From positions 4,912 through 68,911 of the forward strand of contig JAPYUP010000001.1 of assembly GCA_029940695.1 (NCBI GenBank): a DNA stretch of 64,000 bases. The letters are read 5' to 3'. A program made the translations under genes and the position numbers. Below, piece by piece: positions 4,038 to 20,213 of the stretch. Source of the stretch: Candidatus Thalassarchaeaceae archaeon (GTDB lineage Archaea; Thermoplasmatota; Poseidoniia; Poseidoniales; Thalassarchaeaceae). Every line of letters starts with the position of its first letter. Within the stretch, counting starts at the first letter, position 1. The notes beneath the pieces are model-generated. The model did not search any database and had not been told where the DNA came from. It saw nothing but the letters and a program-made list of their open reading frames with translations.

Positions 4038-5166
4038 TCGGGGATTTTGTGTCCTTGTTCACCAAATACCGGACTGCAATCGGAACTGCTATCACAACGC
4101 TAATCGCCAAGACTGGAATATGCCACCCAACCTCCTCAGAACTGGGTCGTTCTACGAGCCACGTAAATCGCAATTCAGAATTCTGGAAGTCAGAAGACCA
4201 GTAGAACAGATTGGTGGTATGGTGCCCAACAACTGTAACGGAGTGATGCAGTCCGTTGAAAGTGGACAGCGGTGTTTCAATGAGTGCACCAATCTCGTCT
4301 GACAACTCAATTGTGACTAACTGACCTGGTGAAAGAGTCAGAAGAATTCCTTCCGGGAGTGGTCTCCATCCGACTTGCAGGTGACGAATACCGGAGTCAA
4401 GATTAGGGAATGGGATGGATCCCTCCTTCACGCTAAGAGTCGATTCGCCAAACCCGAGCATAATCGAGCCTGGAACTGACCAACTCTCAGTGTCGTTCAA
4501 ACTGGCGATGATGGTTGAGCCCTCCATCGAAACGTTGATTCTTTGGCCCGCCAGAAAGTGGTGATGCCACTCCCCCCATGTGGTGAACCAAACATCCTGT
4601 TGCTCTAGCCAGAAGATTAGGTCTTTGTCCTCCCTAACCTTTAGATCGTGAATTCTCGCCATCCATTGGATACTGAAGATACTGTTCTGTTCAGCGGACT
4701 CCAACAAAGCCCTGTCAGACAATGTCTTCTCGAGAGTACCCCCGTTGCTCTCGAAGAAAGCGAGCCCATCAGCACCACCAACAGAGCCATCACCGACTAT
4801 CTCGAAGCCAGCATCGATAAGCGCAGACGAAGTATTTGATTCCAAATCTATGCCGCTCAGACCGAACGAGATAGGAGTAGATCCCCATCGAGATGCCTCT
4901 GTTAGGTTAGTCAGATAGTAGCGACAAGCCTCTATGGTCCACGGTTCCTCGTCGATGCCAAGACTCTCGTAGCCATGGCAACCGAACTCATCCCCAAGGG
5001 CTAGACGTTCGGGTCCGAACACATTGGAAAGCCAGTTGTCGGTTTCCCATTCGCCGACAGCCGGTGAGGAAAGCATAGGAAGCAGCAGCAACGCTACTAG
5101 AATGGCTCCTATGGGCTTCCTAGCCACGGCCCACCGTGTTAACGATGGCATTTCACTACTTGCCAT
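4018..5166 (-). CDS. Exported, C-terminally membrane-anchored hypothetical protein (possible degenerate NodB/polysaccharide deacetylase fold)
   Basis: Signal peptide (ILVALLLLPMLSSPAVG) and C-terminal TM helix. EFGCHG and QDVWFTTWGE resemble NodB-domain segments. Confidence 0.6.
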   Translation of the reverse strand: MASSEMPSLTRWAVARKPIGAILVALLLLPMLSSPAVGEWETDNWLSNVFGPERLALGDEFGCHGYESLGIDEEPWTIEACRYYLTNLTEASRWGSTPISFGLSGIDLESNTSSALIDAGFEIVGDGSVGGADGLAFFESNGGTLEKTLSDRALLESAEQNSIFSIQWMARIHDLKVREDKDLIFWLEQQDVWFTTWGEWHHHFLAGQRINVSMEGSTIIASLNDTESWSVPGSIMLGFGESTLSVKEGSIPFPNLDSGIRHLQVGWRPLPEGILLTLSPGQLVTIELSDEIGALIETPLSTFNGLHHSVTVVGHHTTNLFYWSSDFQNSELRFTWLVERPSSEEVGWHIPVLAISVVIAVPIAVRYLVNKDTKSPIIPESS

Positions 5167-6833: not shown

Positions 6834-7355
6834 ATGAGGATGGCAATGATAGTGGCGATGGATGAGGATGGACGCATAGGAAAAGGCAACGGACTACCAT
6901 GGAGGCTGGCCGCCGACATGGCTCGGTTCAAACGCTTGACCGAGGGAGACGGATTCAATGCGGTGATAATGGGGAGGAAGACATGGGACTCTTTGCCCGA
7001 CGGGTTTCGCCCTCTGCCAGAACGACTGAACATCGTGATGTCTCGCCACACTGACTGGGCCAATGAAGAGGCCGAGACTGCCCTCTACCCTGGGCGGGCT
7101 ATCGAAATTGCGTATGCGGATGGTTGCGAGGAGTGCTGGGTCATTGGCGGGGCGCAGATCTACGGCATGTACCTAGACAGGGTGGATGAGATTCACGTAA
7201 CCACCGTGCACACCACTGGCAGCGGCGAAGTCTCCTTCCCCAAATGGGACAAGAGCGGTTGGACCGAGGAGACTATCGAAAGCCTCGATGCAGATGATGG
7301 CAACGAGCACTCGACTAGGTATTCGATTTGGACCAGGTCTGGATTCAAAGGATAG
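6834..7355 (+). CDS. folA: Dihydrofolate reductase
   Basis: IG.GNGLPW.L.ADM.RFK, VIMGRKTWDS, RPLPER.NIV.S, VIGGAQIY. Directly follows thyA. Confidence 0.97.
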   Translation: MRMAMIVAMDEDGRIGKGNGLPWRLAADMARFKRLTEGDGFNAVIMGRKTWDSLPDGFRPLPERLNIVMSRHTDWANEEAETALYPGRAIEIAYADGCEECWVIGGAQIYGMYLDRVDEIHVTTVHTTGSGEVSFPKWDKSGWTEETIESLDADDGNEHSTRYSIWTRSGFKG

Positions 7356-7367
7356 TCTTTGTTTCGA

Positions 7368-9029
7368 CTAAGGCGAAACGGTCTTGGATGATACGGTCCT
7401 ATTCTTATAATCAGAGTAGTTTCCAGGCCAAACAATTAGGTTTCCATCTCCTTGTAAATCCCAAATTGTGTCACACACTTTATCTAGGAAAAATCGGTCA
7501 TGACTTACCGTGATAATGCCTCCATCAAACTCATTCAGAGCGGTCTCGAGAGCCTCCTTTGCATCTGTGTCCAAGTGGTTTGTGGGTTCATCGAGCAAAA
7601 GCATATTATTTTCCTCAAGCAGGAGTCTGAGAAGAGCCACTCTGGCCCTTTCACCGCCACTAAGTTTGCTAAGTGGAGTTGAGACCATTTCCTTTGTGAA
7701 TTGAAACTGCCCAAGAAGTGCCCGCACTTTTCCATATTCCATCCTAGGTTTCAATTCCTGAACCTCTTCGATTGGAGTGAGTTTAAAATTTAAGAAGCGA
7801 TGATCTTGGTGGAAGTACCCGATTTGCACCCCGGGACTAATTTCTAGTTTACCGGAGTCAAGATTTAAGTCGCCTGTAATGAGTCTTAGTAGGGTGGTCT
7901 TGCCTGCTCCATTTGGACCTATGACTCCTATTTTCTGACCCCTGCGGACGCTTACTTCTAGATTCTTAATTATTGGCCTTGAAAGAGATTCAAAGGACAA
8001 ACTTGCATCACGGAATTCCAATACTTCCAGACTACTCTTCTCTGCAGATTGGAGATTGAAATTTAGACTCTGGCGCTGCTTTGGTTTCAAAGATTTCAGC
8101 CATTTTAACTCCCGTTGGGAGCGTGAAATCATGAAATGTTTCTGAGATACCGATTTGTCGAACTTGTTCGCTCTCTTCATCGATTGCATAGCCCCTTTAA
8201 GACGCTTGATTTCCTTCTGAGTTTTTACAATCCGATCATTCAATGTCCGTAAGAAGATTTCTTTCTGTTTTAGAAATGATGTATAGTTTCCTGGATAGGC
8301 ACGAAGATGCGAATCCTGGATCTCGACGATGTTATTGCAGACTCTATCAAGGAAATACCTGTCATGGCTAACTATCATCAATGCACCATCAAATCTGTTT
8401 AGGAACCTCTCAAGCCACTCTAAAGTATTGAAGTCAAGGTGATTCGTTGGTTCATCAAGGAAGAAAACTTCAATTTGACTTAGCCCGACCAGTTGTCTGG
8501 CAAGAGCGACTTTTGCGCGCTCACCGCCAGAGAAAGAAATTAGTGGCACCTCCATCGAGTTTTGATCGAGATTCAGTGCCTTGAGAATCTCCTGGGCATG
8601 CCCGGCGACGTCGCTTCCCCCTGATCGAGCCATCAAACTTTGCAACTCTTGATATCTTTCCATGTCTGGCTGCCAGTCGCCCTCATAGAACGATGGCTTC
8701 TCCATTTTTTCTTCGAGTTCAGAGATTTCTTCCTCTAGCTCTAGAAATTGTCGCCCTCTGCGACTAAGTTCCTGCCTCAGAGTCGCACCGTCGTCTATGT
8801 CTCTAATTTGTGTTAGGAAGGCTAGCCTCAATGCCGGGGCGAAGGAAATGTCTCCAAGATCCTGATCTTGGTTACTGATAGTTCTGAGAAGTGTAGTTTT
8901 TCCTGATCCATTGTGTCCTATTACACCAATACGATCACCTTCGTCAATGCGTAAATTTACCCCATCTAGAACTGTCAGTGGACCGAAGGCCCTGTGAACT
9001 TCTTCAAGACGAATCAACTCTCTGGCCAC
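7368..9029 (-). CDS. ABC-F family ribosome-associated ATPase
   Basis: Two ABC domains (GHNGSGKT / FSGGE / LDEPTNHLD / VSHDRYFLD and GPNGAGKT / LSGGE / LDEPTNHLD), a YPGNY linker and no TM segments. Confidence 0.95.
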   Translation of the reverse strand: MARELIRLEEVHRAFGPLTVLDGVNLRIDEGDRIGVIGHNGSGKTTLLRTISNQDQDLGDISFAPALRLAFLTQIRDIDDGATLRQELSRRGRQFLELEEEISELEEKMEKPSFYEGDWQPDMERYQELQSLMARSGGSDVAGHAQEILKALNLDQNSMEVPLISFSGGERAKVALARQLVGLSQIEVFFLDEPTNHLDFNTLEWLERFLNRFDGALMIVSHDRYFLDRVCNNIVEIQDSHLRAYPGNYTSFLKQKEIFLRTLNDRIVKTQKEIKRLKGAMQSMKRANKFDKSVSQKHFMISRSQRELKWLKSLKPKQRQSLNFNLQSAEKSSLEVLEFRDASLSFESLSRPIIKNLEVSVRRGQKIGVIGPNGAGKTTLLRLITGDLNLDSGKLEISPGVQIGYFHQDHRFLNFKLTPIEEVQELKPRMEYGKVRALLGQFQFTKEMVSTPLSKLSGGERARVALLRLLLEENNMLLLDEPTNHLDTDAKEALETALNEFDGGIITVSHDRFFLDKVCDTIWDLQGDGNLIVWPGNYSDYKNRTVSSKTVSP

Positions 9030-9280
9030 ACCCCTCCGCGAGAGTCCCCCCTACAAGTAACCGATTGACTCGGGGGTGATTCATAGATACCCATTGAGTC
9101 ACATACGCATCATATGATTTGAGAAGTGCCCCTTTGAACGGCAACACTTCAGAGTGGTTTCAATCGATGAAGTCACCTCCTCTTCTCTAGCCCCTGAAAG
9201 GACCCACTGATAGTCTACAGATTGCCTGCACAACCACATGGACCTAAGGACAAACACATTGATTCGTTAGTTAATCTCTT

Positions 9281-9302
9281 GAATCATGTTTCGACAAGAT
9301 TC
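9281..9302. promoter_or_regulatory. Imperfect palindrome, candidate transcription-factor operator
   Basis: GAATCATGT-TTCG-ACAAGATTC (8/9 arm match) about 100 bp upstream of the ORF at 9399. Confidence 0.35.
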
Positions 9303-9398
9303 CCATCTGACCTTTTGCGGGTTATTTCACCTATATTCACGCATTTTGACCCTATGATGATATGGTTTTGCAGGCTATGGGTTGTTAGGTGAGCAAAG

Positions 9399-10475
9399 AT
9401 GAACACTGACAGAACTACCGTAAGAGAACGAATACTAACACAGGCAATGGTCGCACTGGCTGTACTGGCATTATTTGCTGGTGCATCAGTTGGGGCGAGC
9501 TTAGAAGAATTCGCAGCACCCACCTACGCTGAAGATAACGCGTATTCAGGAGCTGTGGATGATTCTACAGACGATAGTGACTGGAAAGCCATGGATTCAC
9601 ACAAGGGTATGAAAAATGGTGCAAAGTCCTTGATTGGAAGTTTCATGAGTAAGGGAATGGATGACCGAATGGATGATCGTGAAGCACATCTTGAAGAGAG
9701 GATTGCTATTGGTCAAGAAAGTGTTATCGCATACCAATACTGTATCGACAGCGCTGAATGTGACGTAGAGTCCACTGAGCTTCAAGACATGATCGACAAC
9801 ATCAACTCTAGGCATGCAGAAATGCAGGAGAAACTCAATTCTGATGATAAGGAACTGTCAGAGGAATCCAAGGGGGAGATAGACAATAACGATTGGGGCG
9901 AGTGGAATATTGACCAAAAGAGAGTTTTCTCCGATGATAGAGCAATGATGCTAGAAGCTGGTCGTGTCGCTATTTCATTCTGTATAAACAGCGAAGACTG
10001 TACGGCAAATCATGAGGTACTTGCAGAAGTTCTCGAACACATCTCAGTTCGACACGCCAACCACCAAGATTGTTCTGAGGAGGAGCGATGTGAGCGTGGT
10101 GACGATGATCGAAGAGGTCTGATGGAGAGATTACAAGATGCAATGCGCAGAGGACCTCGAGGTGGAGCAGATCATCAAAAATCTCACATGGACATTGGTC
10201 CAGATGTCTGCAAGGAACGTGGTGGTGAGTGGAATCTTCGTGCCTATCCAGCAGAAGCAACCGACAGAGGCGAGGGAGTTTACTACTGTAACTTCTGGTT
10301 TGATGGCGACCGTGAAATCGACGACCGTGAAATGACGCAGGAGGACTGCGGGGCTCGAGGAGGCACCTGGACTCAGGATGATACAGGGGACTCCTACTGC
10401 GACTTTGGGCAGGAGGATGACCGTGAGAACAGTGAGGAATCCGAAGACAACCGTGAAGAAGAAACGACTGACTGA
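9399..10475 (+). CDS. Secreted or membrane-anchored acidic Cys-rich repeat protein, hypothetical
   Basis: N-terminal hydrophobic signal, two CI.S..C...RHA helical repeats and two C..RGG.W...YC.F repeats. Confidence 0.75.
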   Translation: MNTDRTTVRERILTQAMVALAVLALFAGASVGASLEEFAAPTYAEDNAYSGAVDDSTDDSDWKAMDSHKGMKNGAKSLIGSFMSKGMDDRMDDREAHLEERIAIGQESVIAYQYCIDSAECDVESTELQDMIDNINSRHAEMQEKLNSDDKELSEESKGEIDNNDWGEWNIDQKRVFSDDRAMMLEAGRVAISFCINSEDCTANHEVLAEVLEHISVRHANHQDCSEEERCERGDDDRRGLMERLQDAMRRGPRGGADHQKSHMDIGPDVCKERGGEWNLRAYPAEATDRGEGVYYCNFWFDGDREIDDREMTQEDCGARGGTWTQDDTGDSYCDFGQEDDRENSEESEDNREEETTD

Positions 10476-10506
10476 AATTTGGTTATTGACAATCTGATTA
10501 CACAAA

Positions 10507-10536
10507 CGGTCCGGTGTGCTGATGCGCACCGGACCG
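10507..10536 (+). terminator. Strong GC-rich hairpin between genes (terminator or stabiliser candidate)
   Basis: CGGTCCGGTGTGC-TGAT-GCGCACCGGACCG forms a 13-bp stem with one G.U pair. No U-tract follows. Confidence 0.5.
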
Positions 10537-10571
10537 CCCAAACTTCAAACCGAGAGCCTTAGGGTTCAAGC

Positions 10572-11054
10572 ATGGCCGATGGAACAAGTTCTGACCATTC
10601 GGCTAAGATGGACAGAATAGTGAAACTAACGCTTTCTCTTGGTAGCTTCATGCTCCTTCTGTTAATTTCACTCCCCTTCACAATGAGTTCAGGTTCCCTG
10701 AGTGGAACTGCTCCTTATCTTCTATACTCATTATTCTTAACAAGTGTTGGAATAGTCATCGGTATCTCTCTAACTTGGCTTAATGACCCAACCCGATTGA
10801 CTGACAACGCCATTTCTGATTTACAGGCCACTAAGACTCAGATGCCTATGCTTTCTTCTGATGAAAAAGTGGTTGTCAATATCTTAGCCTCCAATGGAGG
10901 TTCTATGTGGCAGGCTGAGGTTGTGCGGGCTAGTGGATTCTCAAACTCAAAAGCGAGTAGATTGCTTTCACGAATGGAGCATTCTGGTATAATTGGACGG
11001 TTGAGGGATGGAATGGGCAAGCGGATCGAGTTGATAGATTTAGGAGGAGAGTAA
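10572..11054 (+). CDS. Membrane-anchored winged helix-turn-helix transcriptional regulator
   Basis: Two N-terminal TM helices, then LSSDEKVVVNIL..NGG.MWQAEVV...GFSNSKASRLLSRME..GII.R.RDGMG.RIEL. Confidence 0.85.
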   Translation: MADGTSSDHSAKMDRIVKLTLSLGSFMLLLLISLPFTMSSGSLSGTAPYLLYSLFLTSVGIVIGISLTWLNDPTRLTDNAISDLQATKTQMPMLSSDEKVVVNILASNGGSMWQAEVVRASGFSNSKASRLLSRMEHSGIIGRLRDGMGKRIELIDLGGE

Positions 11055-11489
11055 ATGGAGATGAGAGCAGAGAAGAGAATGATTGCACTGGTAACATTGG
11101 CTTTGATGATAGTCGTATTGTCAGCTAGGATGCTGTATCTGGTAGATGCTTCTTTGAGAGCGGGTGAAGGCTACGGTCTTACCGGGGATGGAGCCATACA
11201 AACTGTACCCTTGCTGTTGTTGCTGGTGGTTTTGCTGTGGTTAGTAACGGGAATATTCAGAGACTCTCCTCTTAATCTCGAAGTCGCTGACAAACAGACT
11301 ATTGCTATCATGGCACTAATGTTCGTGATTGGTTTCTACATTGGACCGGGCATTACTATCCCAACTGAACTTTCCAATTCAAATATTGTTGGAATCCTCA
11401 TGGTCATAGTTCCTATATTGCTAATTGGGGCGATGTTTTTCTCGATGAAAGATACTGAGCAGTCAATCGATATTGCCGAAGAAGAATGA
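11055..11489 (+). CDS. Hypothetical 4-TM membrane protein
   Basis: Four hydrophobic segments. Abuts the HTH gene, with an AGGAG Shine-Dalgarno upstream. Confidence 0.7.
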   Translation: MEMRAEKRMIALVTLALMIVVLSARMLYLVDASLRAGEGYGLTGDGAIQTVPLLLLLVVLLWLVTGIFRDSPLNLEVADKQTIAIMALMFVIGFYIGPGITIPTELSNSNIVGILMVIVPILLIGAMFFSMKDTEQSIDIAEEE

Positions 11490-11602
11490 CTCGCTCTTTC
11501 CGGGGGCCCCTTTGACATGATTCGTTCCTGACCCTAGTATGGGTAACTCTCGCCGATAACACGACCGGCTTTTCTCTTGGTCAGTTCATCCATGGAGTCA
11601 CA

Positions 11603-11971
11603 TTATTCCACTGCATAACCCTTGAGAAGGTCTAACGGGACAATTTGGAGAGTCTCCTCGTGAGTAGCCGACAGTATCACATGACAAGCTACTCCTTTGT
11701 TGGCAGCGTCTTGCCATGTCTGTGCGCAAACGCACCACCTGTCCCCCGGTGAGAGGCCGGGGAATCTGTGCTCAGGCACCGGTGTGATCAGATCGTTCCC
11801 CTCGGAGCGAGCGAACTCTAGGAACTCCTGAGAGACCAAGCAACAAACGGTATGTAACCCCGGGTCGTTGCGGTCAGTGTTGCAGCATCCATCCCTATAC
11901 CACCCCGTGAGGGGGTCGGAAGAACAAGTCTGCAACTCACCCCCAAGAACGTTGAATGATGGTAGCAACAA
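11603..11971 (-). CDS. DUF2237 family protein
   Basis: NVLGGEL..CS.DPLTGWYRDGCC.T...D.GLHTVC...FL.F....GNDLITP.P...FPGL.PGDRWCVCA. Confidence 0.92.
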   Translation of the reverse strand: MLLPSFNVLGGELQTCSSDPLTGWYRDGCCNTDRNDPGLHTVCCLVSQEFLEFARSEGNDLITPVPEHRFPGLSPGDRWCVCAQTWQDAANKGVACHVILSATHEETLQIVPLDLLKGYAVE

Positions 11972-12111
11972 TACTGACTCAAGTATTCAGTAGATTAACT
12001 CATGGATGAATCATTCGCATTTGTCATGAAGATTAGGGTGATATCAAACCCATTGAAACCCCTGGTCCTATGCCTACACAGCAGTTGAAGCACTAACCCC
12101 CATCGCACCTC

Positions 12112-12885
12112 ATGCCCAAACCCCGTTCTGCCGTCTGGTCGGGTATCGCTTGGGACGGAAAATCATCCCTGCTAGCAGCGGACATGCACTTTGATAGAAT
12201 TCATCGCCACGCCACAGTCCTAGGAATACAGACTCCTGACAACCTAGCCAAGAGTGTCTTCGAGGTCCTGACTGACCTCGAACTCCCTGGAGAGGCAAAT
12301 GACAGCACAGATCAAGCGGCCTTCCTCGTCATAGTTGGTGTAAGATCAAACGGGGAGTTCTACGTTGAGCCAGTCGTCATCCGGACTTGGCCCGAAGTCC
12401 CTCTGTCAGCGATTTCTCTCGCCGCTCCCACGTGGGACGAGCCCGTCAGAGGCACCAAGCACGCAGAGTGGGGGCCGTACAGGGACGCGAGACTGACTGC
12501 TATCGAAAACGGTGCGGACATCGCTCTGCTGTTTGAAGAAGATATCCTAGTGGACGGAGATCGCTGTGCCCCGCTACTGCTCGACTACGATGGCGTGGCC
12601 TACCACCCTCGGCACAGCGACGGCGCCCTAGACTCGGTAACCATTGAACAGATCCGGCCAGAACTCGAGGCAGTAGGTATCCCAGTGAGGCCGGTCAAAC
12701 TAACTCTCGACATGATACTACGTGCGTCTGAGATGGTGGTGTGCGGGAGCGGAATGGGGGTTCGCGCAATCGGCAGCATCGATAGTCGAACCATTGGCAC
12801 ACCTCGAGGCAGGCTGTTCCAAGCGGCCACGGAAGCATGGTTCTCTAGGCTCGAAGTTGGCTGGATTACTGCCGGGGACATCTAG
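12112..12885 (+). CDS. PLP-dependent aminotransferase class IV (4-amino-4-deoxychorismate lyase-like)
   Basis: HFDRI, GTKH (PLP Lys), A...GAD.ALL, GALDSVT, ASEMVVCGSGMGVRAI.SID. Confidence 0.75.
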   Translation: MPKPRSAVWSGIAWDGKSSLLAADMHFDRIHRHATVLGIQTPDNLAKSVFEVLTDLELPGEANDSTDQAAFLVIVGVRSNGEFYVEPVVIRTWPEVPLSAISLAAPTWDEPVRGTKHAEWGPYRDARLTAIENGADIALLFEEDILVDGDRCAPLLLDYDGVAYHPRHSDGALDSVTIEQIRPELEAVGIPVRPVKLTLDMILRASEMVVCGSGMGVRAIGSIDSRTIGTPRGRLFQAATEAWFSRLEVGWITAGDI

Positions 12886-13098
12886 GGTACTCGTCAGAAT
12901 CTACTTCGCTACCCTCTGATTCAGAAAGACACGCGCTAGATATGATGGTAATGGGGTCATGTTAGTAAAATATGGAAGAACGAATCAATGTATTATAGGG
13001 AGTCGAATCAGTCCTAGAGATCGTGCTGTATAGCATTCTGATGGTTGATGGGGACAGCAGTGCGGCGTAAGATGGGTTGAGAATAGACTACCGACCGG

Positions 13099-13359
13099 TC
13101 ATTCGGTTTCCTGTATCGAAGTTCCATAGACTGTGAGAACGACCGACCAACGTTTTCCGTCGAACGCTGGCGTCAATCCTGGTTTATTGGTTTCAAAGGA
13201 CGCAGAAGAGATTTCTCTCGTCTCTTTGAAGTGTCGAAGGTATTCCTGAATGTTCTCCCAAAGTTCCGGGAGCGATTCCGCATATACCCTCACATGCTGA
13301 CCCGGAGCCTCCCATCCATCAGCTAGGCCCATATCTACAACCTCCCACTTTTCGCCCAT
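13099..13359 (-). CDS. Small hypothetical protein
   Basis: 86-aa ORF with the GTTCAAG..GCACCCCC element exactly 29 nt upstream of its ATG. Confidence 0.65.
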   Translation of the reverse strand: MGEKWEVVDMGLADGWEAPGQHVRVYAESLPELWENIQEYLRHFKETREISSASFETNKPGLTPAFDGKRWSVVLTVYGTSIQETE

Positions 13360-13511
13360 GGTTTCCGAAGGGGGTGCGTGGCTTGAACAGTGTGTTTCTA
13401 GGACTCCCTATGAAATGTCAATAAGGTGGTAAATGAGTTGCCCTCGAGTCAATGATTACTGTGGATCGTATGCTGTTAACAAAGTAATCCTACTTGCTAT
13501 GCTAAATAGGG

Positions 13512-14879
13512 ATGGCAGGCGCGACCCAAAAGAGGTATAGGTTGGTTCGATTTTCAGATTTAGGAATTGGTCTCCAATTGGTCGAAGCATTGCGAATCGA
13601 GGGAATTATCGAGCCATTTGAAGTTCAGTGCGAAACAATTCCGGATGCGATTCTCGGCAGAGATGTATGCTGTAGGGCCCCGACTGGATCAGGAAAAACC
13701 TTGGCATTCGGTTTGCCACTGATTGCAAGGACCGCTGAAGCCAAGCCAAAAAGGCCGACTTCCTTGGTTCTCACCCCAACGAGAGAATTGGCCGAGCAAA
13801 TCAGAAATGTTCTGAAACCTCTTGCTAGGTCTGTGGATTTGGGCGTCTTGTCTATCTACGGAGGAACCCCATATAGGGGGCAATTGAGGTCACTGGCGCG
13901 CGGTGTCGACATCTTAGTCGCCTGCCCTGGCAGGCTACTCGATTTACTAGATAGGGGTGCACTTCGTCTCGATGATGTAGACATTGTCGTCCTTGATGAG
14001 GCCGATCGTATGGCAGACATGGGCTTCATGGAACCAGTCTGCTCGATACTCGATAAGTGTCGTCCGAAACGCCAGACAATATTATTCAGCGCAACTCTGG
14101 ACGATGACGTTGCTGAGATTGTCAAATCATATCAGAGCGATCCCGTCAAAATCAATATTGGACCTGTGGAAGTAAGCATGGAAAGCATGCAACACCTATT
14201 CTGGAAAACCAACTCGCGTTCAAAGGCGGATCTTTCGTCCTACATTGCTGAGAAATGTGGTCGAAGCATAATATTCTGTAGAACTAGGGCCGGAGTGAAC
14301 AGACTAGGGGATGAACTGAAGGTGATTGGCTCATCATACACCACCCTTCACGGGGGCATGAATCAGGGACAGAGAGCCAGGTCAATGCAAAAGTTCAGTG
14401 GTGGCCGTGCGAGAATCCTGATTGCAACCGATGTCGCTTCGCGTGGAATTGACGTAAACGACGTCGGGTGCGTGATAAATTTCGATCCGCCTGAAAATGG
14501 TAAGGCGTACAAGCATCGAAGTGGTAGAACCGCGCGAGCGGGCTCGACTGGAACTGTAGTCTCTTTGGTGCAGAGATCGCAACAGAAGCGGTACCGAAGT
14601 ATTCAAAATGGAGCGGGAATTAAGTGTAAGTTTACCGATCCCAGGGTGGAAATATTGGAGGAAAGAAAATTTATTCTAACTCCCTCCAATAGATCAGAAA
14701 GACGTAGCAATTCCAGAGGCTCACGAAATCACAACAAGAGGACAAGAGGAAATCGGAAAGGGGCGCAATCCAGTTCTACCCCCCATAAATCTGGATCCCC
14801 ACATGGCCGTCGAAAAGGGAAAGGGAAACACAAGTCCCGTTCTCGTAACAAACTAAGGAAAGCAGATTCTAGGGCTTAA
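13512..14879 (+). CDS. DEAD-box RNA helicase
   Basis: Q motif, APTGSGKT, PTRELA, GG, DEAD, SAT, ATDVASRGID, HRSGRTAR and a basic C-terminal tail. The probable start is TTG 13542, downstream of a GAGGT SD. Confidence 0.96.
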   Translation: MAGATQKRYRLVRFSDLGIGLQLVEALRIEGIIEPFEVQCETIPDAILGRDVCCRAPTGSGKTLAFGLPLIARTAEAKPKRPTSLVLTPTRELAEQIRNVLKPLARSVDLGVLSIYGGTPYRGQLRSLARGVDILVACPGRLLDLLDRGALRLDDVDIVVLDEADRMADMGFMEPVCSILDKCRPKRQTILFSATLDDDVAEIVKSYQSDPVKINIGPVEVSMESMQHLFWKTNSRSKADLSSYIAEKCGRSIIFCRTRAGVNRLGDELKVIGSSYTTLHGGMNQGQRARSMQKFSGGRARILIATDVASRGIDVNDVGCVINFDPPENGKAYKHRSGRTARAGSTGTVVSLVQRSQQKRYRSIQNGAGIKCKFTDPRVEILEERKFILTPSNRSERRSNSRGSRNHNKRTRGNRKGAQSSSTPHKSGSPHGRRKGKGKHKSRSRNKLRKADSRA

Positions 14880-14986
14880 TCACTCAGGGGTTTCAATGGA
14901 TTCCTTTTCCAATATCCACCCAATAATCTACGTACGAATAAGAATACTCCCGTCAAACTTGATGGGTACCTCCCTCTGCCAGATTC

Positions 14987-15883
14987 ATGGCCAACCAAAG
15001 GATTGAGGCAGTGGTACAAGGGCATTTGATTGATGTTCTATCAATCCTCCATCCTGAAGCAAAGAAAAACTCACTGCGGCGAATGATTGATCATGGACGC
15101 GTGCGGATAGATGGTAACAAGGCGACTCGTGCTAAGGAAATTGTTTCCATCGGATCAATTGTAGAAACACTCTCTCGTTCTGAAGGAGATAGTCCTGCCG
15201 GGGTAAAAATTGATGGAATTCCAGATCCAAAGATTCTATTCGATGATCACTCATTAATTGTCGTCAACAAACCCGCAGGTCTTCTTTCTGTGGCAACCCA
15301 GAGGGGTGAATTGGATACAATGTTTGACCGGACACTGAATTGGGTTTCAAGAAATCATTCAACTCGAGTACATCTTGTTCATCGTCTTGATAGGGAAACA
15401 TCTGGTTGTTTGCTTCTCGCTAAGTCTCCAGAAGTAAGAAATATGCTGCAAAAACAATTCAAAGATCGTACGGTTGAACGAATCTATCATGCTGTCGTAT
15501 TCGGAAAACCCCCTTCCGATTCAGGTGTCGTAACCTCTCGTATTCAGGAGACGAAAGATAAACGGATGCGTTTAGTAACGAAGGGATGGAGAGCTGGTAA
15601 GGAAGCGATTACTAACTGGAGAATAGAGCAGACTGCACCGATTCATAGTTTAATCAGAATAAAAATCGACACAGGGAGGAGATCTCAAATTAGACTCCAC
15701 ATGAGTGAAATTGGTTGTCCGGTTGCTGGCGATACTCGGTATGGCCGAGGTAAGGCAAGTGTGAACAGATTGTGTTTACACGCTTCTTCACTTGAATTTG
15801 AACATCCGAATGGAAACAGGATACGAGTTGATAGTGAGATTCCAACTAAGCTAAACTCAGAATTGAATCGCAGGTCGTTATGA
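14987..15883 (+). CDS. RluA/RluD family pseudouridine synthase with an S4-like N-terminus
   Basis: VVNKPAGLL, VHRLDRETSG, TGRRSQIRLH, GCPVAGD.RYG, LCLHA. Confidence 0.94.
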   Translation: MANQRIEAVVQGHLIDVLSILHPEAKKNSLRRMIDHGRVRIDGNKATRAKEIVSIGSIVETLSRSEGDSPAGVKIDGIPDPKILFDDHSLIVVNKPAGLLSVATQRGELDTMFDRTLNWVSRNHSTRVHLVHRLDRETSGCLLLAKSPEVRNMLQKQFKDRTVERIYHAVVFGKPPSDSGVVTSRIQETKDKRMRLVTKGWRAGKEAITNWRIEQTAPIHSLIRIKIDTGRRSQIRLHMSEIGCPVAGDTRYGRGKASVNRLCLHASSLEFEHPNGNRIRVDSEIPTKLNSELNRRSL

Positions 15884-15935
15884 GATCGTGAATAGGTGAA
15901 TCAAAGATCATAAATGGGCAATGGAATCATGAGCA

Positions 15936-16979
15936 TTAACCAATGAATCCAGCCCTCACTAAAGGTGCCACGTCGTTGGCATAGAGTTCAATCGAATTCA
16001 TCAGTTGCTCATGCGGCATTCCCCCATTGCTGTACTTCATGTCGAATCTGGAGAGCTTTAGTATCCTAGCATTTCGAATAATCTTCTCAGCTACTGTCTC
16101 CGGAGAGCCAACATAGAGTGAGCCTTCGGGTCCGATGGCGAACTCAAATTGGTCGTAAGTCACCGGGGGCCATCCCCGCTCTCTACCAATCCTTGTGAAC
16201 ATCTCTCTGTAGTGGGGCCAGACCTCCGCCTGGGCCCGCTCATCCGTGTTGGACACATGACCTGGACTATGGCAGGATATTGGCTGTATGGGGTGGCCAA
16301 ACCGCTCTAGAGAATGCAAATAGAGATCAACATACTGGGTGAACCTCTCTGGTTGGCCCCCTATGATTGCGATGCATAGTGGGAAACCGTAGCGGGCCGC
16401 CCTGACGACCGATTCAGGACTTCCGCCCACGCCAATCCACGTCCTAAGTGACCCTCGCTGCGTAGTTGGGTAGGCCCTTTGACCCCTAAGTGGTGGCCTA
16501 ATCGATCCTTTCCACTCGAGTGGTCCCTCGTGCTTGAGCAAAGACAAAATCTCAAGCTTCTCCCCGAACTGTATGTCATATTCCTCCATCTTAATCCCGA
16601 ATAGAGGAAAAGACTCTGTGAACGAACCCCTCCCAAGGATAACCTCGGCCCTTCCGTTAGAAAGAGCGTCAACTGTGGCAAACCTCTCGTAGACTCTAAT
16701 CGGGTCATCTGAGTTCAGAACCGTGACAGCGGATCCCAACCTGATTCTATTCGTCCTGCTGGCGATTGCTGCTAGTACGACCTCGGGTGAGGAAATGGCG
16801 AAGTCCTCCCTGTGGTGTTCTCCGACCCCGAAGAAATCCAATCCTAAGCTATCAGCTAGTACGGCCTCCTCGACTACATTGCGCAAGACTTCGTGTTGCT
16901 CAAGATGCTGTCCATTAGCCCCTCGAGTGACGTCCCCGAAGGTATCCAGACCCAGCAAGATACCGTTGTCAACCCCCAT
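15936..16979 (-). CDS. LLM-class (luciferase-like) flavin-dependent oxidoreductase
   Basis: GLDTFGD, FGVGEHHR, RLGSAVTVL.SDDP.RV, GRGSFTESFPLFG, GVGGSPESV.RAA. SD AAGGTGG lies before ATG 16979. Confidence 0.93.
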   Translation of the reverse strand: MGVDNGILLGLDTFGDVTRGANGQHLEQHEVLRNVVEEAVLADSLGLDFFGVGEHHREDFAISSPEVVLAAIASRTNRIRLGSAVTVLNSDDPIRVYERFATVDALSNGRAEVILGRGSFTESFPLFGIKMEEYDIQFGEKLEILSLLKHEGPLEWKGSIRPPLRGQRAYPTTQRGSLRTWIGVGGSPESVVRAARYGFPLCIAIIGGQPERFTQYVDLYLHSLERFGHPIQPISCHSPGHVSNTDERAQAEVWPHYREMFTRIGRERGWPPVTYDQFEFAIGPEGSLYVGSPETVAEKIIRNARILKLSRFDMKYSNGGMPHEQLMNSIELYANDVAPLVRAGFIG

Positions 16980-16984
16980 TGATT

Positions 16985-17185
16985 TCACCACCTTAGTTTG
17001 GGGGCAATGAGGACGTCTGTCTCTGTCCAATCCTGGGACCTGAATTCATCCACAACGCCAAATCCGCCCCATATGGCAGAGAGAAAGATGCCCAGAATGA
17101 TGCCGACTGCGCCTATCCCGATGAACATCATCCGCTTCTCATCATCGTCGGGGATTGTTTCATCTTCAGATGGAGCATCTTCCAT
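16985..17185 (-). CDS. Small single-TM protein, possibly a truncated DUF3592-like fragment
   Basis: Acidic N-terminus and a TM helix, then SQDWTETD.LI, ending abruptly at the LLM ribosome-binding site. Confidence 0.45.
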   Translation of the reverse strand: MEDAPSEDETIPDDDEKRMMFIGIGAVGIILGIFLSAIWGGFGVVDEFRSQDWTETDVLIAPKLRW

Positions 17186-17329
17186 GGCGCGGTGTTTTCA
17201 CCTAAACTAATTGAGGCTATCTTGCCACATGGATTCAGAGGGGGGGCCATGCAACTAACGGGTGTTGGATGCGCCCCCCTTCCAAGGTACCGATAATGAC
17301 GCAGGCATCTTAGAGGGTGCCCCCTACTG

Positions 17330-17539
17330 ATGACTATGGTCAATTGGGAGCGTGCTATCCTCGAATTGATCGCTGGTATGATTTTTCTTACAACAATGTA
17401 CATTGTTGGTGTGGAATATTTTGGCTATTTTGGCTATCTAGCTTTCATTTCTATTTTCTGGATGTCAATACTAATTGTGTTAACCATTTGGCTTAGGGCA
17501 AATAGGAAAGCTATCTTCGTAATCGATGAAGAAGAGTGA
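17330..17539 (+). CDS. Small 2-TM hypothetical protein
   Basis: Two hydrophobic helices and an acidic C-terminus (DEEE). Confidence 0.6.
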   Translation: MTMVNWERAILELIAGMIFLTTMYIVGVEYFGYFGYLAFISIFWMSILIVLTIWLRANRKAIFVIDEEE

Positions 17540-17577
17540 ACGGCATCATCTTCCCTAGGGATTGTGCTGCATAGCAG

Positions 17578-17910
17578 TTAATCGAGCTCGGGGCTGTCCC
17601 CCCCCTCCCACCATCCCTTCTCTATGATTTTGTGTCTCCTTGCAAGGTAAAACACGGTAAGAGCCGGCCAAAAGGCAATAATCAGGAAGATAAAAAGTGC
17701 AGCGATTGGATCCCTACCTCTTATGGACCCCGAAGGAACGTAATCAAAAACCGACTGGATGGATGTAAGTTTCTGAAATACGTACCACCAGACTGTGTTC
17801 AGTGTCAACGCCAAGAGAAAAATCATCGTTCCAAGCCTATTGCGTTCGCCGAGTTCGGAGTCTTGCGTCGAGGTGGGGGAGACCTCTTCATCTCCTTCAG
17901 CCAGAGCCAT
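17578..17910 (-). CDS. Small 2-TM hypothetical protein ending in the GWWEGGDSPE motif
   Basis: Acidic N-terminus, two TM helices and a CTTGAAAG box 30 nt upstream of the ATG. Confidence 0.7.
   Translation of the reverse strand: MALAEGDEEVSPTSTQDSELGERNRLGTMIFLLALTLNTVWWYVFQKLTSIQSVFDYVPSGSIRGRDPIAALFIFLIIAFWPALTVFYLARRHKIIEKGWWEGGDSPELD
17588..17617 (-). repeat. 30-bp inverted repeat, copy 1
   Basis: The minus strand reads GGGATGGTGGGAGGGGGGGGACAGCCCCGA, 28/30 identical to 19176-19205 (+). Confidence 0.85.
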
Positions 17911-18071
17911 TACTCACCAATTGAGACCATTACTTTCAAGCATATTCCCTGCAATGACCCCTCTATGTCGTATGCATACACTAGGGTTGCGTGGTATATG
18001 CCACTGAGTACCTCGACGGTACCTCACACGATTTGCGATGCTTTCTTGACATGATTCACAACCGCGCTTTC

Positions 18072-18947
18072 ATGAGAGTACAATTATTGATCGCAATTCT
18101 ACTGCTTTTTTCTACCTCTTTAGCCGGTTGCGCGGGAGAAAACACTGAGGACGAGGCCACAGGCGGTCTGGATAACGTGGAAGACGGTACGTTGGAAGGT
18201 ACTGACAATGAGGGGGACGAGACTGAGGAAAACACCAATTCGAACGATACGGGGCCTGACTATGACGGTGACGGAATTGAAGACGGGATGGATTACGATG
18301 ACGACGGCGACGGAGTCAACGATACTTACGATGCCTTTCCTCTTGACTCAAACGAGTCTGCAGACACGGACTCGGACGGGATCGGAGACAATGCCGACGA
18401 GGATGACGACGACGACGGAGTCAACGACACGGAAGATGCGTTTCCTCTTGACCCCTCAGAGACAACAGACTTCGACGGCGATGGGGATGGCGACAACGGG
18501 GACGACGACGACGACTCTGACGGGATAGAGGACTCAATTGACGACTGCCCTCAGAGCTCGGACATCCTCGCAGTGATGAATGCGGATTATTTCAGTCTAA
18601 TGGCAGAGAACGGCATAGGATTGGTTACATTCATTGACGCAATAGACTCGTCAATGAACACTTCTGGGGAAACCGTACAAACCACCTTCCTGGACTGGGA
18701 CGGCGACGGATGCTGGATGTTCGAGGATCATGACGATGATGGGGACGGATTGGAAGAAGGCCCAGTGAACGGAACCATCCCGCAGTGGTGGCTCTACACC
18801 CCTGGTGACAACTGCGTTATCGTGGCCAACCCGAATCAGATCGATACCGACGAAGATGGGAGGGGGGACGAGTGCGATGATGATGATGACAACGATGGAA
18901 TCGAAGACTCCGAGGACGCATACCCGCTCGACCCCGAAAATTCGTAA
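18072..18947 (+). CDS. Lipoprotein with thrombospondin type-3 (Ca2+-binding) repeats
   Basis: Lipobox LAGC, followed by many DxDGDG..D..D.DDD.DG..D..DAFPLD repeats and a DNC...ANP.Q.DTD.DG.GD.CD repeat. Confidence 0.9.
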   Translation: MRVQLLIAILLLFSTSLAGCAGENTEDEATGGLDNVEDGTLEGTDNEGDETEENTNSNDTGPDYDGDGIEDGMDYDDDGDGVNDTYDAFPLDSNESADTDSDGIGDNADEDDDDDGVNDTEDAFPLDPSETTDFDGDGDGDNGDDDDDSDGIEDSIDDCPQSSDILAVMNADYFSLMAENGIGLVTFIDAIDSSMNTSGETVQTTFLDWDGDGCWMFEDHDDDGDGLEEGPVNGTIPQWWLYTPGDNCVIVANPNQIDTDEDGRGDECDDDDDNDGIEDSEDAYPLDPENS

Positions 18948-18994
18948 TCTAGGGTACCCTCTGAATCGTACCTCTGGTCGTCGTCGAACAATTC

Positions 18995-19012
18995 GTTCAA
19001 GGCTGGCACCCC
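18995..19012 (+). promoter_or_regulatory. 18-bp repeated upstream element GTTCAAGGCTGGCACCCC (copy 1)
   Basis: Identical to 19593-19610. Both copies begin exactly 29 nt before an ATG. Confidence 0.7.
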
Positions 19013-19023
19013 AACCCGTAATC

Positions 19024-19353
19024 ATGGAGCGTGGAGTTGTAGGTGGCCTTTGCGGGGTCAAAGGATGCAGAAGCCCCACCATGTACCAGAGTCCCGTCTG
19101 CTACAAGCACAAGGGGAAGTCTGGGGACTTCGCGTTCAGGTCTACAAAGGGCGATGCAGAGAAGGAAGAGGAGACGGGATGGTGGGAGGAGGGAGACAGC
19201 CCCGAAGAAGAGGCTCGACAGGTCGCCGACCTCGCCAAGGGCTATTCCAGCACGGAGGACGATGAGGATTGGGATTGGAGTGGGTGGTGGTGGAGAATTC
19301 CCTTGTTCCTTATCATCGTCTTCAGCTGGGAATACGTGAAATACGGACTCTGA
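19024..19353 (+). CDS. Small protein with an N-terminal CCCH-type Zn-finger-like motif, a WWEEGDSPE motif and a C-terminal TM helix
   Basis: MERGVVGGLCGVKGCRSPTMYQSPVCYKH...GWWEEGDSPEEE...WWWRIPLFLIIVFSW. Start inferred from the upstream element. Confidence 0.7.
   Translation: MERGVVGGLCGVKGCRSPTMYQSPVCYKHKGKSGDFAFRSTKGDAEKEEETGWWEEGDSPEEEARQVADLAKGYSSTEDDEDWDWSGWWWRIPLFLIIVFSWEYVKYGL
19176..19205 (+). repeat. 30-bp inverted repeat, copy 2
   Basis: GGGATGGTGGGAGGAGGGAGACAGCCCCGA; see 17588-17617. Confidence 0.85.
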
Positions 19354-19412
19354 TTGAATCATGGTGGAGTCCCAGCGAGGCATTCAAGAATGGTACCCCC
19401 TGTCGTAATGTG

Positions 19413-19556
19413 ATGATTGAGCCACCCCCCATGACGGGTGATGGTTGGGAGCCCGGTGCCGTAGAGGCAATGGTAATCGTTGGCATCCTTATCGCTTACT
19501 GGTTGGGTTGGCTGAATGTGATTTGGATGAATGCGTTGTCGTTGTGGCCGTTCTGA
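19413..19556 (+). CDS. Very small single-TM protein (47 aa)
   Basis: MIEPPPMTGDGWEPGAVEAMVIVGILIAYWLGWLNVIWMNALSLWPF, preceded by ATTCAAGAATGGTACCCCC at 19382. Confidence 0.5.
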   Translation: MIEPPPMTGDGWEPGAVEAMVIVGILIAYWLGWLNVIWMNALSLWPF

Positions 19557-19592
19557 CTTCGACCACGAATGAACTCATGACCCAAGCATCCA

Positions 19593-19610
19593 GTTCAAGG
19601 CTGGCACCCC
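19593..19610 (+). promoter_or_regulatory. 18-bp repeated upstream element (copy 2)
   Basis: Identical to 18995-19012, 29 nt before ATG 19622. Confidence 0.7.
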
Positions 19611-19621
19611 CTTTCGGAGGC

Positions 19622-19876
19622 ATGGAATACAGCGTTATTCAAGTCGGCTCGATAAATGAACTCAAGGATGCGGTGAGGAAGATGATTGGTTCGGGTTGGG
19701 TGCCTCTAGGGGGAATGAATGTTTACTCCAGCGGTGACCATGGCTCCCCCGATTACTATCAGGCGATGGTAAGGAAATTGGACAATGTAGCATCTTCGAA
19801 CGCCCAGATGACCGATCTCAAGACTGAGATCAACTACCTCAACGATGAGTTGACTGAGTGGTTGGAAGATCATTAG
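19622..19876 (+). CDS. DUF1737-like protein with a C-terminal coiled coil
   Basis: YSVI.....EL...V...I..GW.PLGG.......YQAMV pattern, then heptad-rich MTDLKTEINYLNDEL. Confidence 0.7.
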   Translation: MEYSVIQVGSINELKDAVRKMIGSGWVPLGGMNVYSSGDHGSPDYYQAMVRKLDNVASSNAQMTDLKTEINYLNDELTEWLEDH

Positions 19877-20213
19877 GACCTCCGCGAGGTGCCCAAGGCT
19901 ATCACTCCCTTATGTGATCCCTTCCAATTCATTAATCAACGAAATCCATGCTGACGTATTACCTAGGAGTTTGTTCCTCCAAGAACAAGGGGGTTGGGGG
20001 TTCCTAGGTCGGCATCTAAACTGCCGCGGTCCCATCGGCCGAAATCTCCCCCTTCCCCCACCTTCATCTTTGGACCTGCATAGCTTAGGTCCCCATATTT
20101 CCTCTCAGTGCAACAGAAGGCGTAGCCCCCAGCGAAATCATGCCGAAGTCGGCCGAGAGAGGGGTGGTGGGGCCCACCAACCGTTCAAGAATCACATCCC
20201 TTTGGCGAATCAT

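Follow-up and report, generated by a model that had tools for sequence, protein, structure and literature searches.

An in-frame inverted repeat between two divergent archaeal genes is probably a coding by-product of a shared WWE peptide module on membrane proteins

The R64-type shufflon (Rci) and the invertons of the intragenic or partially intergenic kind (PMC10028968, PMC8371274) are the described systems that come closest to the locus considered here. Inversion of this kind is known in archaea, where one report gives 12 invertons in 42 genomes (PMC10028968), and the homology-driven archaeal pTN3 integrase is reported to act on identical segments down to 104 bp (PMC8371274). The locus lies in a window of 64,000 nucleotides (positions 4,912 to 68,911 of the forward strand of contig JAPYUP010000001.1, assembly GCA_029940695.1) from a Candidatus Thalassarchaeaceae archaeon, the home genome of which comprises 1.42 Mb in 44 contigs, is 94% complete and has 57% GC. 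Two divergent genes in this window, here called gene A and gene B, carry the arms of an inverted repeat, and an earlier note on the sequence had proposed that the interval between the arms inverts and exchanges the ends of the two proteins. Like the R64-type shufflon, the locus has an in-frame inverted repeat in two coding regions, and inversion would give chimeras. In contrast to it, there is one repeat pair, a perfect run of 14 nt, no adjacent or dedicated recombinase, a single orientation in all contigs examined, and arms that are separable from one another. We conclude that the inverted repeat is probably a coding by-product of a docking module shared by two membrane proteins, referred to below as the WWE module, and that DNA inversion is almost certainly not involved.

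A repeat finder applied to the window places the arms at 17588-17622 and 19171-19205, with a length of 35 nt, 91% complementarity (32/35) and a spacing of 1548 nt. The 30-bp in-frame repeat of the earlier note was reproduced in both its identity and its shared reading phase: the 30-mers at 17588-17617 (minus strand) and 19176-19205 (plus strand) agree at 28 of 30 positions, and both arms are in frame within their genes. The longest perfect run shared by the arms is the 14 nt mentioned above. A search of the window with a 29-mer of the right arm gave two matches (0 and 2 mismatches); two or more arose in none of 100 dinucleotide shuffles. Within the home genome the strict motif occurs at these two sites only, and no third copy of the repeat DNA was found in it. 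The strict DNA pattern for WWE-x-[GE]-D-S-P was found in one of 201 genomes of the order, the home genome itself. The repeat would arise from two divergent genes that each encode one acidic double-tryptophan module of about 12 residues, with coding strands that mirror each other as a result, and the 32 identical bases out of 36 would follow from the two Trp codons (TGG TGG), the biased Glu and Gly codons and the common descent of the module.

The consensus of the module, E-(E/K)-x-G-W-W-E-x-x-D-S-P-E-E, covers about 12 residues and is acidic, and it is carried N- or C-terminally by at least six unrelated membrane-protein scaffolds (Table 1). One of the carriers, a DUF3592 protein of other genomes of the same genus, was not found in a search of the home genome. 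The pattern WW[ED]x(1-5)[SD][PA], a regular expression written post hoc when the instances had already been seen, matches 11 times in 1263 gene-like open reading frames (ORFs) of the home genome, compared with 2 matches to the reversed pattern; the shuffles averaged 2.5, and none of the 200 exceeded 7. Gain and loss of the module take the form of in-frame indels of 36-39 nt. Of the features by which linear motifs are recognized, a short invariant core in a variable region, presence on unrelated scaffolds and turnover by small indels are found here. The module is conserved and is reused on unrelated membrane proteins, where it occupies either a terminus or an acidic linker of variable sequence, and it comes and goes by indels; the alternative offered by the earlier note, of a WWE.GDSP peptide module spread among small archaeal proteins, is the part of it that is supported. 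No paper on such a motif or family in the Poseidoniales or other archaea was found in the literature searched. The home genome also encodes two giant surface proteins that end in longer, Trp/Pro-rich cytoplasmic tails, one at C21:3638-8431 (ending ...PEGWTMDQWIAYGHLWWEQNSP at the stop codon) and the other in a 1492-aa ORF on C30 (...YPGWLWDPSKQEWVPDP...).

Gene A provides the clearest view of how the module moves. It had been described as a protein of two hydrophobic helices with the motif at its C-terminus, and this agrees with the hydrophobic segments seen at residues 29-45 and 71-87 and with the terminal sequence ...KIIEKGWWEGGDSPELD that precedes the stop codon, the module sitting 9 residues past the second helix. 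Ten homologues were found in a set of 5.8 billion proteins. On alignment the module is C-terminal in the window copy and in two of the ten, in the form KGWW(E/K)GGDSP, while in seven of the ten it is N-terminal (GWWEGEASPT or SWWEDGTSSP) and the protein ends directly past helix 2 (...KIIPD). The metagenome copies on contigs L021, L022 and L023 all have the C-terminal module, and those on L021 and L022 have an intact N-terminal one as well, which in L023 is degenerate (PLWED, within PLWEDGTSSP). The window copy is without the N-terminal module of its close relatives as the result of a 39-nt deletion between two GAAGAGG direct repeats. The C-terminal module is a clean indel of 12 residues, KII/PD in the one form and KII/EKGWWEGGDSPE/PD in the other. 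Gene A is best seen as a two-helix hairpin specific to its lineage, with the module displayed at one end or at both. No credible orthologue was found in 60 genomes of related species (single match 17 bits, E 0.0056), and a search for longer, fused forms of the gene, in itself weak evidence, came back empty. Neither gene A nor gene B has a match in NCBIfam, or in Pfam at E <= 0.1 apart from an unrelated weak match to NapE.

Two further observations concern genes of this type. In the homologue P0010 the C-terminus (...NHREGMVGEGGQPRA...) corresponds to the +1 frame reading of KIIEKGWWEGG. The module DNA is thus present but shifted in frame, be it by a genuine mutation or by an error in sequencing. 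In runs X3 and X5, which are introduced below, a contig of about 5-10x local depth matches the window only over ~17604-17655 and then continues as KIIEKGWWE/AEDSVEADSS, 30 letters of the unmatched part having been seen. To judge from these letters, a more abundant relative carries a gene of the gene-A type in which the tail is longer and of another sequence.

The layout given for gene B in the earlier note, a zinc-finger-like N-terminus followed by the motif and a transmembrane tail, is likewise recognizable. The Cys/His ligands C10, C15, C26 and H29 are spaced C-x4-C-x10-C-x2-H, the middle of the protein reads ...EEETGWWEEGDSPEEE..., and a C-terminal hydrophobic segment spans residues 92-108. 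W53 lies 24 residues past H29, making the module internal. In an alignment of 11 rows, 10 of them homologues, W53, W54 and E55 are invariant, and the short homologues, which start MSE(E)KGWWE.xDSPEEE, contain little beyond the module, a linker and the tail anchor. A profile scan of the genome contigs with this alignment found no relative. Comparison of the gene B family with a second family of ribbon proteins gave an hhalign probability of 96.3% (E 1.5e-9 over 77 columns), and a search of the home genome with the profile of this ribbon family recovers gene B (E 7.4e-6). The ligand spacing is the same in gene B and in the ribbon family, and the member on L065 presents ribbon, WWE and tail anchor in the order of gene B, the anchor being C-terminal in both. 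The 16-row alignment of the ribbon family has a mean column identity of 26%, and its only invariant columns are C49, C54, R60, C65, H68, W84, W85 and E86; the acidic, Pro-rich linker varies freely in length and sequence. WW[ED] lies within 45 residues past the ribbon in 16 of the 19 ribbon ORFs of the fetched loci.

Of 80 genomes of the taxonomic family, 41 contain relatives of the home-genome ribbon protein encoded on contig C37, spread over 7 of 13 genera, and the ribbon-family profile matches 33 of 49 genomes of family f1, 0 of 2 of f2 and 4 of 49 of f3. Nothing in Pfam or NCBIfam corresponds to the ribbon family, the best match being a sub-threshold Zf_WRKY19 in 4 of 16 members (E >= 0.09). 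Sequence searches of the PDB, those for this family included, gave nothing meaningful, and the ESM Atlas returned unnamed clusters only (0.84-0.87). By the profile comparisons gene B is a divergent, tail-anchored member of an uncatalogued family built from a membrane anchor, a CCCH zinc ribbon, a variable acidic linker and WWE. The earlier designation of both genes as orphans does not hold for gene B. The gene that encodes a helix, a CCCH ribbon and NWWEE (G000:C37:52250-52525; L045, L049, L050-L053) lies about 200 bp from the gene of ribosomal protein S28e, an adjacency common to all five home-genus loci and seen in none of the fetched loci of other genera. The S28e family also marks the home genome as archaeal, since among 14 control genomes it was detected in the 4 archaeal ones only. 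In the sister family f3, a CCCH ribbon without the WWE part is found inside open frames of 1369-1375 aa (G125:C63:5847-5963, G048:C11:46648-46770), and the CCCH ribbon thus occurs on large proteins also.

The orientation of the interval was followed in independent assemblies. The stretch is present in 20 listed runs from 17 studies, four of which were examined (X3, X5, X12 and X21). One contig of 3108 nt from X5 is collinear with the window over 17205-20000, with 7 differences, and bridges both arms; in X3 the left arm (17279-17719) is spanned by one collinear contig and the right arm (19016-19742) by another, and a contig from X12 bridges the left arm (17241-17674). The five listed joints are all skips, none with a change of strand, and the inverted orientation was not found in the contigs of the three independent runs X3, X5 and X12. 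Of the two orientations that the earlier note would have in the read data, these contigs hold only that of the window. The same contigs bear on whether the repeat or the gene order could be a mis-join of a metagenome-assembled genome, an artefact for which the 44-contig assembly and the structural variability of the area among strains might speak. It is scarcely conceivable, as the arrangement was assembled independently in X5 and piecewise in X3, and L021 has the same junction between gene A and the adjoining cassette. A loose end of high depth at 17604 in X3 and X5 was considered as an inversion junction and rejected; it reads KIIEKGWWEAEDSVEADSS, a gene-A-like gene of another, more abundant population, and only 11 of 30 bases fit the junction that inversion would create.

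The earlier note saw no recombinase in the window, and this is correct, the sole match in the genome to four recombinase families being on contig C37. Three of the families (PF00239, PF01548 and PF07508) gave no match in the 94%-complete genome, where such a gene could still lie in the missing part, and PF00589 gave the one on C37. The best match of this enzyme is the archaeal XerA, at 195 bits and below the cut-off of 220, and its orthologues are present in 25 of 30 relatives and in all six genera drawn, a conservation expected of a housekeeping dimer resolvase. The recombinase that a shufflon would have elsewhere in the genome is thus represented only by a conserved Xer-type enzyme, and no dedicated one was found.

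A switch resembling a shufflon or an inverton, in which the 1.55-kb interval would be flipped, enzymatically by a recombinase or through homologous recombination, to yield two in-frame chimeras, is very improbable on this evidence, even though the in-frame inverted repeat is genuine at 32/35 over 35 nt, the identity of the arms at the DNA level exceeds the expectation from codon usage (P 0.0038) and invertons exist in archaea. Against the absence of strand-changing joints in three contig sets and the contig that runs collinear through both arms, such a switch would have to accommodate a near-identical strain that is without the right arm (L020), a genome with no extra copy of the site, a sole recombinase that is a conserved Xer-type gene on another contig, and a loose end that fits the predicted junction so poorly. 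The longest perfect match of 14 nt compares with the 104-bp identical segments reported for the pTN3 integrase (PMC8371274). No chimeric A/B protein was found among the 10 and 10 near-length homologues, in the search for longer forms or among 1.84 billion representatives, and the arm sequence is fully accounted for as coding for a conserved peptide. With a single orientation in the contigs, separable arms, no dedicated recombinase, no further copy of the site and no chimera, we consider it almost certain that the locus is not an invertible element.

If the repeat is a by-product of the peptide, the question becomes what the peptide does. That the module is a functional peptide signal is very likely, and we lean towards the view that it specifically docks a partner, by its resemblance to Trp-plus-acidic tails and to terminal docking peptides. 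It would then serve as a short linear motif for docking in the cytoplasm, by which proteins anchored in the membrane are tied to a putative soluble or membrane-proximal partner. We infer that the module faces the cytoplasm from the K/R clusters beside helices, hydropathy, the tail-anchor layouts, its place at the C-terminus of the MFS protein and its proximity to the Cys/His ribbon. The main rival to docking is that the module is functional in another way, either as an interfacial membrane-binding element or as a terminal signal for degradation or quality control that a membrane protease would recognize. Trp residues lie at the lipid interface, every carrier is a membrane protein and the module of gene A follows helix 2 by only 9 residues; yet the ribbon and DUF3592 families separate the module from the membrane by long, variable acidic and Pro-rich linkers, for which a tethered ligand is the better fit, and the flanking Glu/Asp residues would presumably be repelled by anionic lipids. 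The location of the module mostly at extreme N- or C-termini is that of degrons, although in gene B it is internal. We regard these non-docking roles, taken together, as possible and rather doubtful. A co-fold of the gene B ribbon (residues 1-48, with Zn) and the gene A tail (78-110) gave a score of 0.02, the mark being 0.32, and weighs neither way.

The explanation of the repeat as a coding by-product of a docking module has points that tell against it. The arms are identical at 32 of 36 positions where about 27 of 36 are expected from the peptides and the codon usage of the genome (P(>=32)=0.0038), an identity that exceeds what peptide constraint alone predicts and of which an earlier recombination between an A-type and a B-type gene may be the source. 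The evidence on orientation consists of assembled contigs, which drop rare variants, and the raw reads of X21, at most about 4-fold in depth and mostly 90-95% alike, are silent on rare variants; there may be an inverted subpopulation at low frequency. The cytoplasmic location of the module is itself deduced from hydropathy and layout.

The excess identity, together with the confinement of the strict DNA pattern to the home genome among 201 genomes of the order, would also suit a one-off event without function, such as a recent local duplication or gene conversion of about 36 nt between genes A and B. This is quite unlikely, as gene A with identical module DNA is found on L020, L022 and L023, none of which has gene B adjacent or nearby, mini-proteins of other species reach 31-32 of 36 identical bases, and WWE is invariant both in the gene-B homologues and in the wider family. 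The module DNA of gene A shares 32 of 36 bases with that of L028, from another species, 31 with L029 and 32 with gene B, compared with only 22-27 of 36 for the ribbon, MFS, EF-hand and DUF3592 carriers. We attribute the excess identity between A and B to common descent of the module, L028 and L029 being equally close. The modules of genes A and B would form one sub-lineage by descent (EKGWWExxDSPE), with an identity that extends beyond this locus. Among the gene-A copies the module is identical at 36/36 positions; this was considered as a sign of selection at the DNA level and rejected, since the whole gene is ~97-98% identical.

The locus varies in structure between strains, and the two arms prove to lie in different variable units. 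A metagenome contig, L020, is without the segment 17996-19576 and has flanks 98.4% and 99.8% identical to the window over 7.3 kb, and one X12 contig has the same cassette-less joint, from 17995 to 19577. The cassette so defined is present in the flank of L021, which shares the junction from gene A to the cassette with the window; the junction has AT microhomology only and no terminal repeats. The TSP3 lipoprotein gene that had been placed between the arms is confirmed by its TSP_3 match and signal sequence (Table 1), and it belongs to this cassette. The left arm lies outside the cassette, in the gene-A unit, and the right arm lies within it. The arms are therefore in two separately variable DNA units and are not inherited together.

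The gene-A unit is ~97-98% identical across five contigs, apart from one 39-nt indel, while in L022 (75-602) and L023 (109-578) its flanks differ completely from those of the window immediately outside the unit. The helicase that stands beside the unit in L022 is ~72% identical to that of the home genome. The 29-nt element at the upstream edge of the unit is single-copy in the home genome, and in L022 two direct copies of it flank gene A. From its sequence, the gene-A unit looks like a small mobile gene cassette. In some strains the 1.58-kb cassette of gene B would have been inserted beside this separately mobile unit, and it is because of this insertion that genes A and B would now be adjacent. 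The CCCTA bounds, the duplicated 29-nt element, the ~97-98% identical unit beside a ~72% identical helicase and the presence or absence of the cassette are also the basis for suggesting that Marine Group II archaea possess a new system of cassette exchange, one that shuffles small WWE-tagged membrane proteins, perhaps by means of the Xer-type recombinase. We hold such a system to be unlikely; were it real, the module would be mobile at the level of the gene as well as that of the peptide.

Several other features were recorded around these units. A direct repeat of 34 nt (18995-19028 and 19593-19626; 79% identical, with an 18-nt identical core GTTCAAGGCTGGCACCCC) directly precedes the ATG of gene B in one copy and, in the other, lies before an in-frame ATG in the ORF that follows the cassette. 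The two genes may have a 5' regulatory element in common, or the repeat may be left over from the origin of the cassette. About 300 nt downstream of gene A, contig L021 (949-1275) resumes at window positions ~8760-9086 with 95% identity, being without ~8.4 kb of the window (~9086-17556). The genome has 57% GC; window positions 7200-17000 are mostly at 42-52%, with values of up to 55% around 12000-12600 and 16200-16800. The genes that neighbour the locus in the window are ordinary housekeeping genes.

Table 1. Features of the locus (window coordinates) and further carriers of the WWE module
Feature	Location	Strand	Description
Gene A	17578..17910 (17910->17578)	-	110 aa, two-helix hairpin protein, helices at residues 29-45 and 71-87
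Left arm	17587..17622	-	12 codons EKGWWEGGDSPE, C-terminal WWE module of gene A
Gene-A unit, 431 bp	17556..17986	-	CCCTA at start and end
29-nt element with palindrome GTATGCATAC	17958..17986	-	upstream edge of gene-A unit
Strain-variable cassette, 1.58 kb	17996..19576		lipoprotein, gene B, small hydrophobic ORF
TSP3-repeat lipoprotein	18072..18947	+	TSP_3 Pfam E 3.9e-11, signal sequence ending LAGC
Gene B	19024..19353 (19024->19353)	+	109 aa: CCCH zinc-ribbon-like module, WWE module, conserved RQVADLAK, acidic linker, C-terminal tail anchor
Right arm	19171..19206	+	12 codons ETGWWEEGDSPE, WWE module of gene B, 21 residues past zinc-ribbon histidine
Hydrophobic ORF, 47 aa	19413..19556	+	right end of cassette, no family found
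MFS transporter fused to S8 protease	home genome C11		module C-terminal, ...GESGWWEKGGDDPVTTA (stop)
303-aa protein, sub-threshold EF-hand match, three helices	home genome C20		module N-terminal, MGNQESQWWDDEVGSPPED
92-aa helix + CCCH ribbon protein	home genome C37		module C-terminal, ...NWWEEGGDAS (stop)
1598-aa S8 surface protein	home genome C21		tail end, ...HLWWEQNSP (stop)
Tail-anchored mini-proteins	L028, L029 (other species of genus)		module in N-terminal region
DUF3592 two-helix protein	six same-genus genomes (L031, L032, L033, L038, L039, L041)		end of long acidic tail, EEVGWWE[DEG]DDGAERGI (stop)

An in-frame inverted repeat between divergent genes can come purely from a shared peptide motif, and predictions of invertons that are based on repeats therefore need a control for peptide conservation. 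In the close relatives of the window copy, gene A carries the module N-terminally, C-terminally or at both ends by way of single small indels, and it offers a clean natural example of the movement of a motif. Among ocean archaea, those of Marine Group II rank with the most abundant, and they are still uncultured. To the cytoplasmic tail signals of their membrane and surface proteins the present analysis would add an invariant W-W-E tag and an uncatalogued zinc-ribbon family, present in 33 of 49 genomes of one family, and the module provides a concrete peptide bait for its putative intracellular partner.

As a peptide, the module can be set beside several known systems. The eukaryotic WWE domain (PF02825) is globular and has about 80 residues; it shares with the module the three letters of its name, and genes A and B have no Pfam match to PF02825. 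Prokaryotic terminal docking peptides include the C-terminal peptide that FtsZ carries on a linker and the acidic tail of SSB. The likeness here is one of design, a short conserved peptide that terminates a linker of variable make-up; the ribbon family shows it in its PEPEPE linker with NWWEE behind. The WWE module differs in its sequence, in having membrane proteins as carriers and in its capacity to be N-terminal. The W-acidic cargo motifs of kinesin-1 are one eukaryotic class of Trp-plus-acidic motif. In the tails of the Plasmodium TRAP-family adhesins, the binding of aldolase is reported to depend on Trp and acidic residues (PMC3448169). With tails of the TRAP type the module has in common a Trp-centred motif, an acidic, probably disordered cytoplasmic tail and a range of unrelated carriers; unlike them it has an archaeal host, an invariant W-W-E core and often a place at the very terminus, and the likeness would be one of possible mode only, with no homology between the two.

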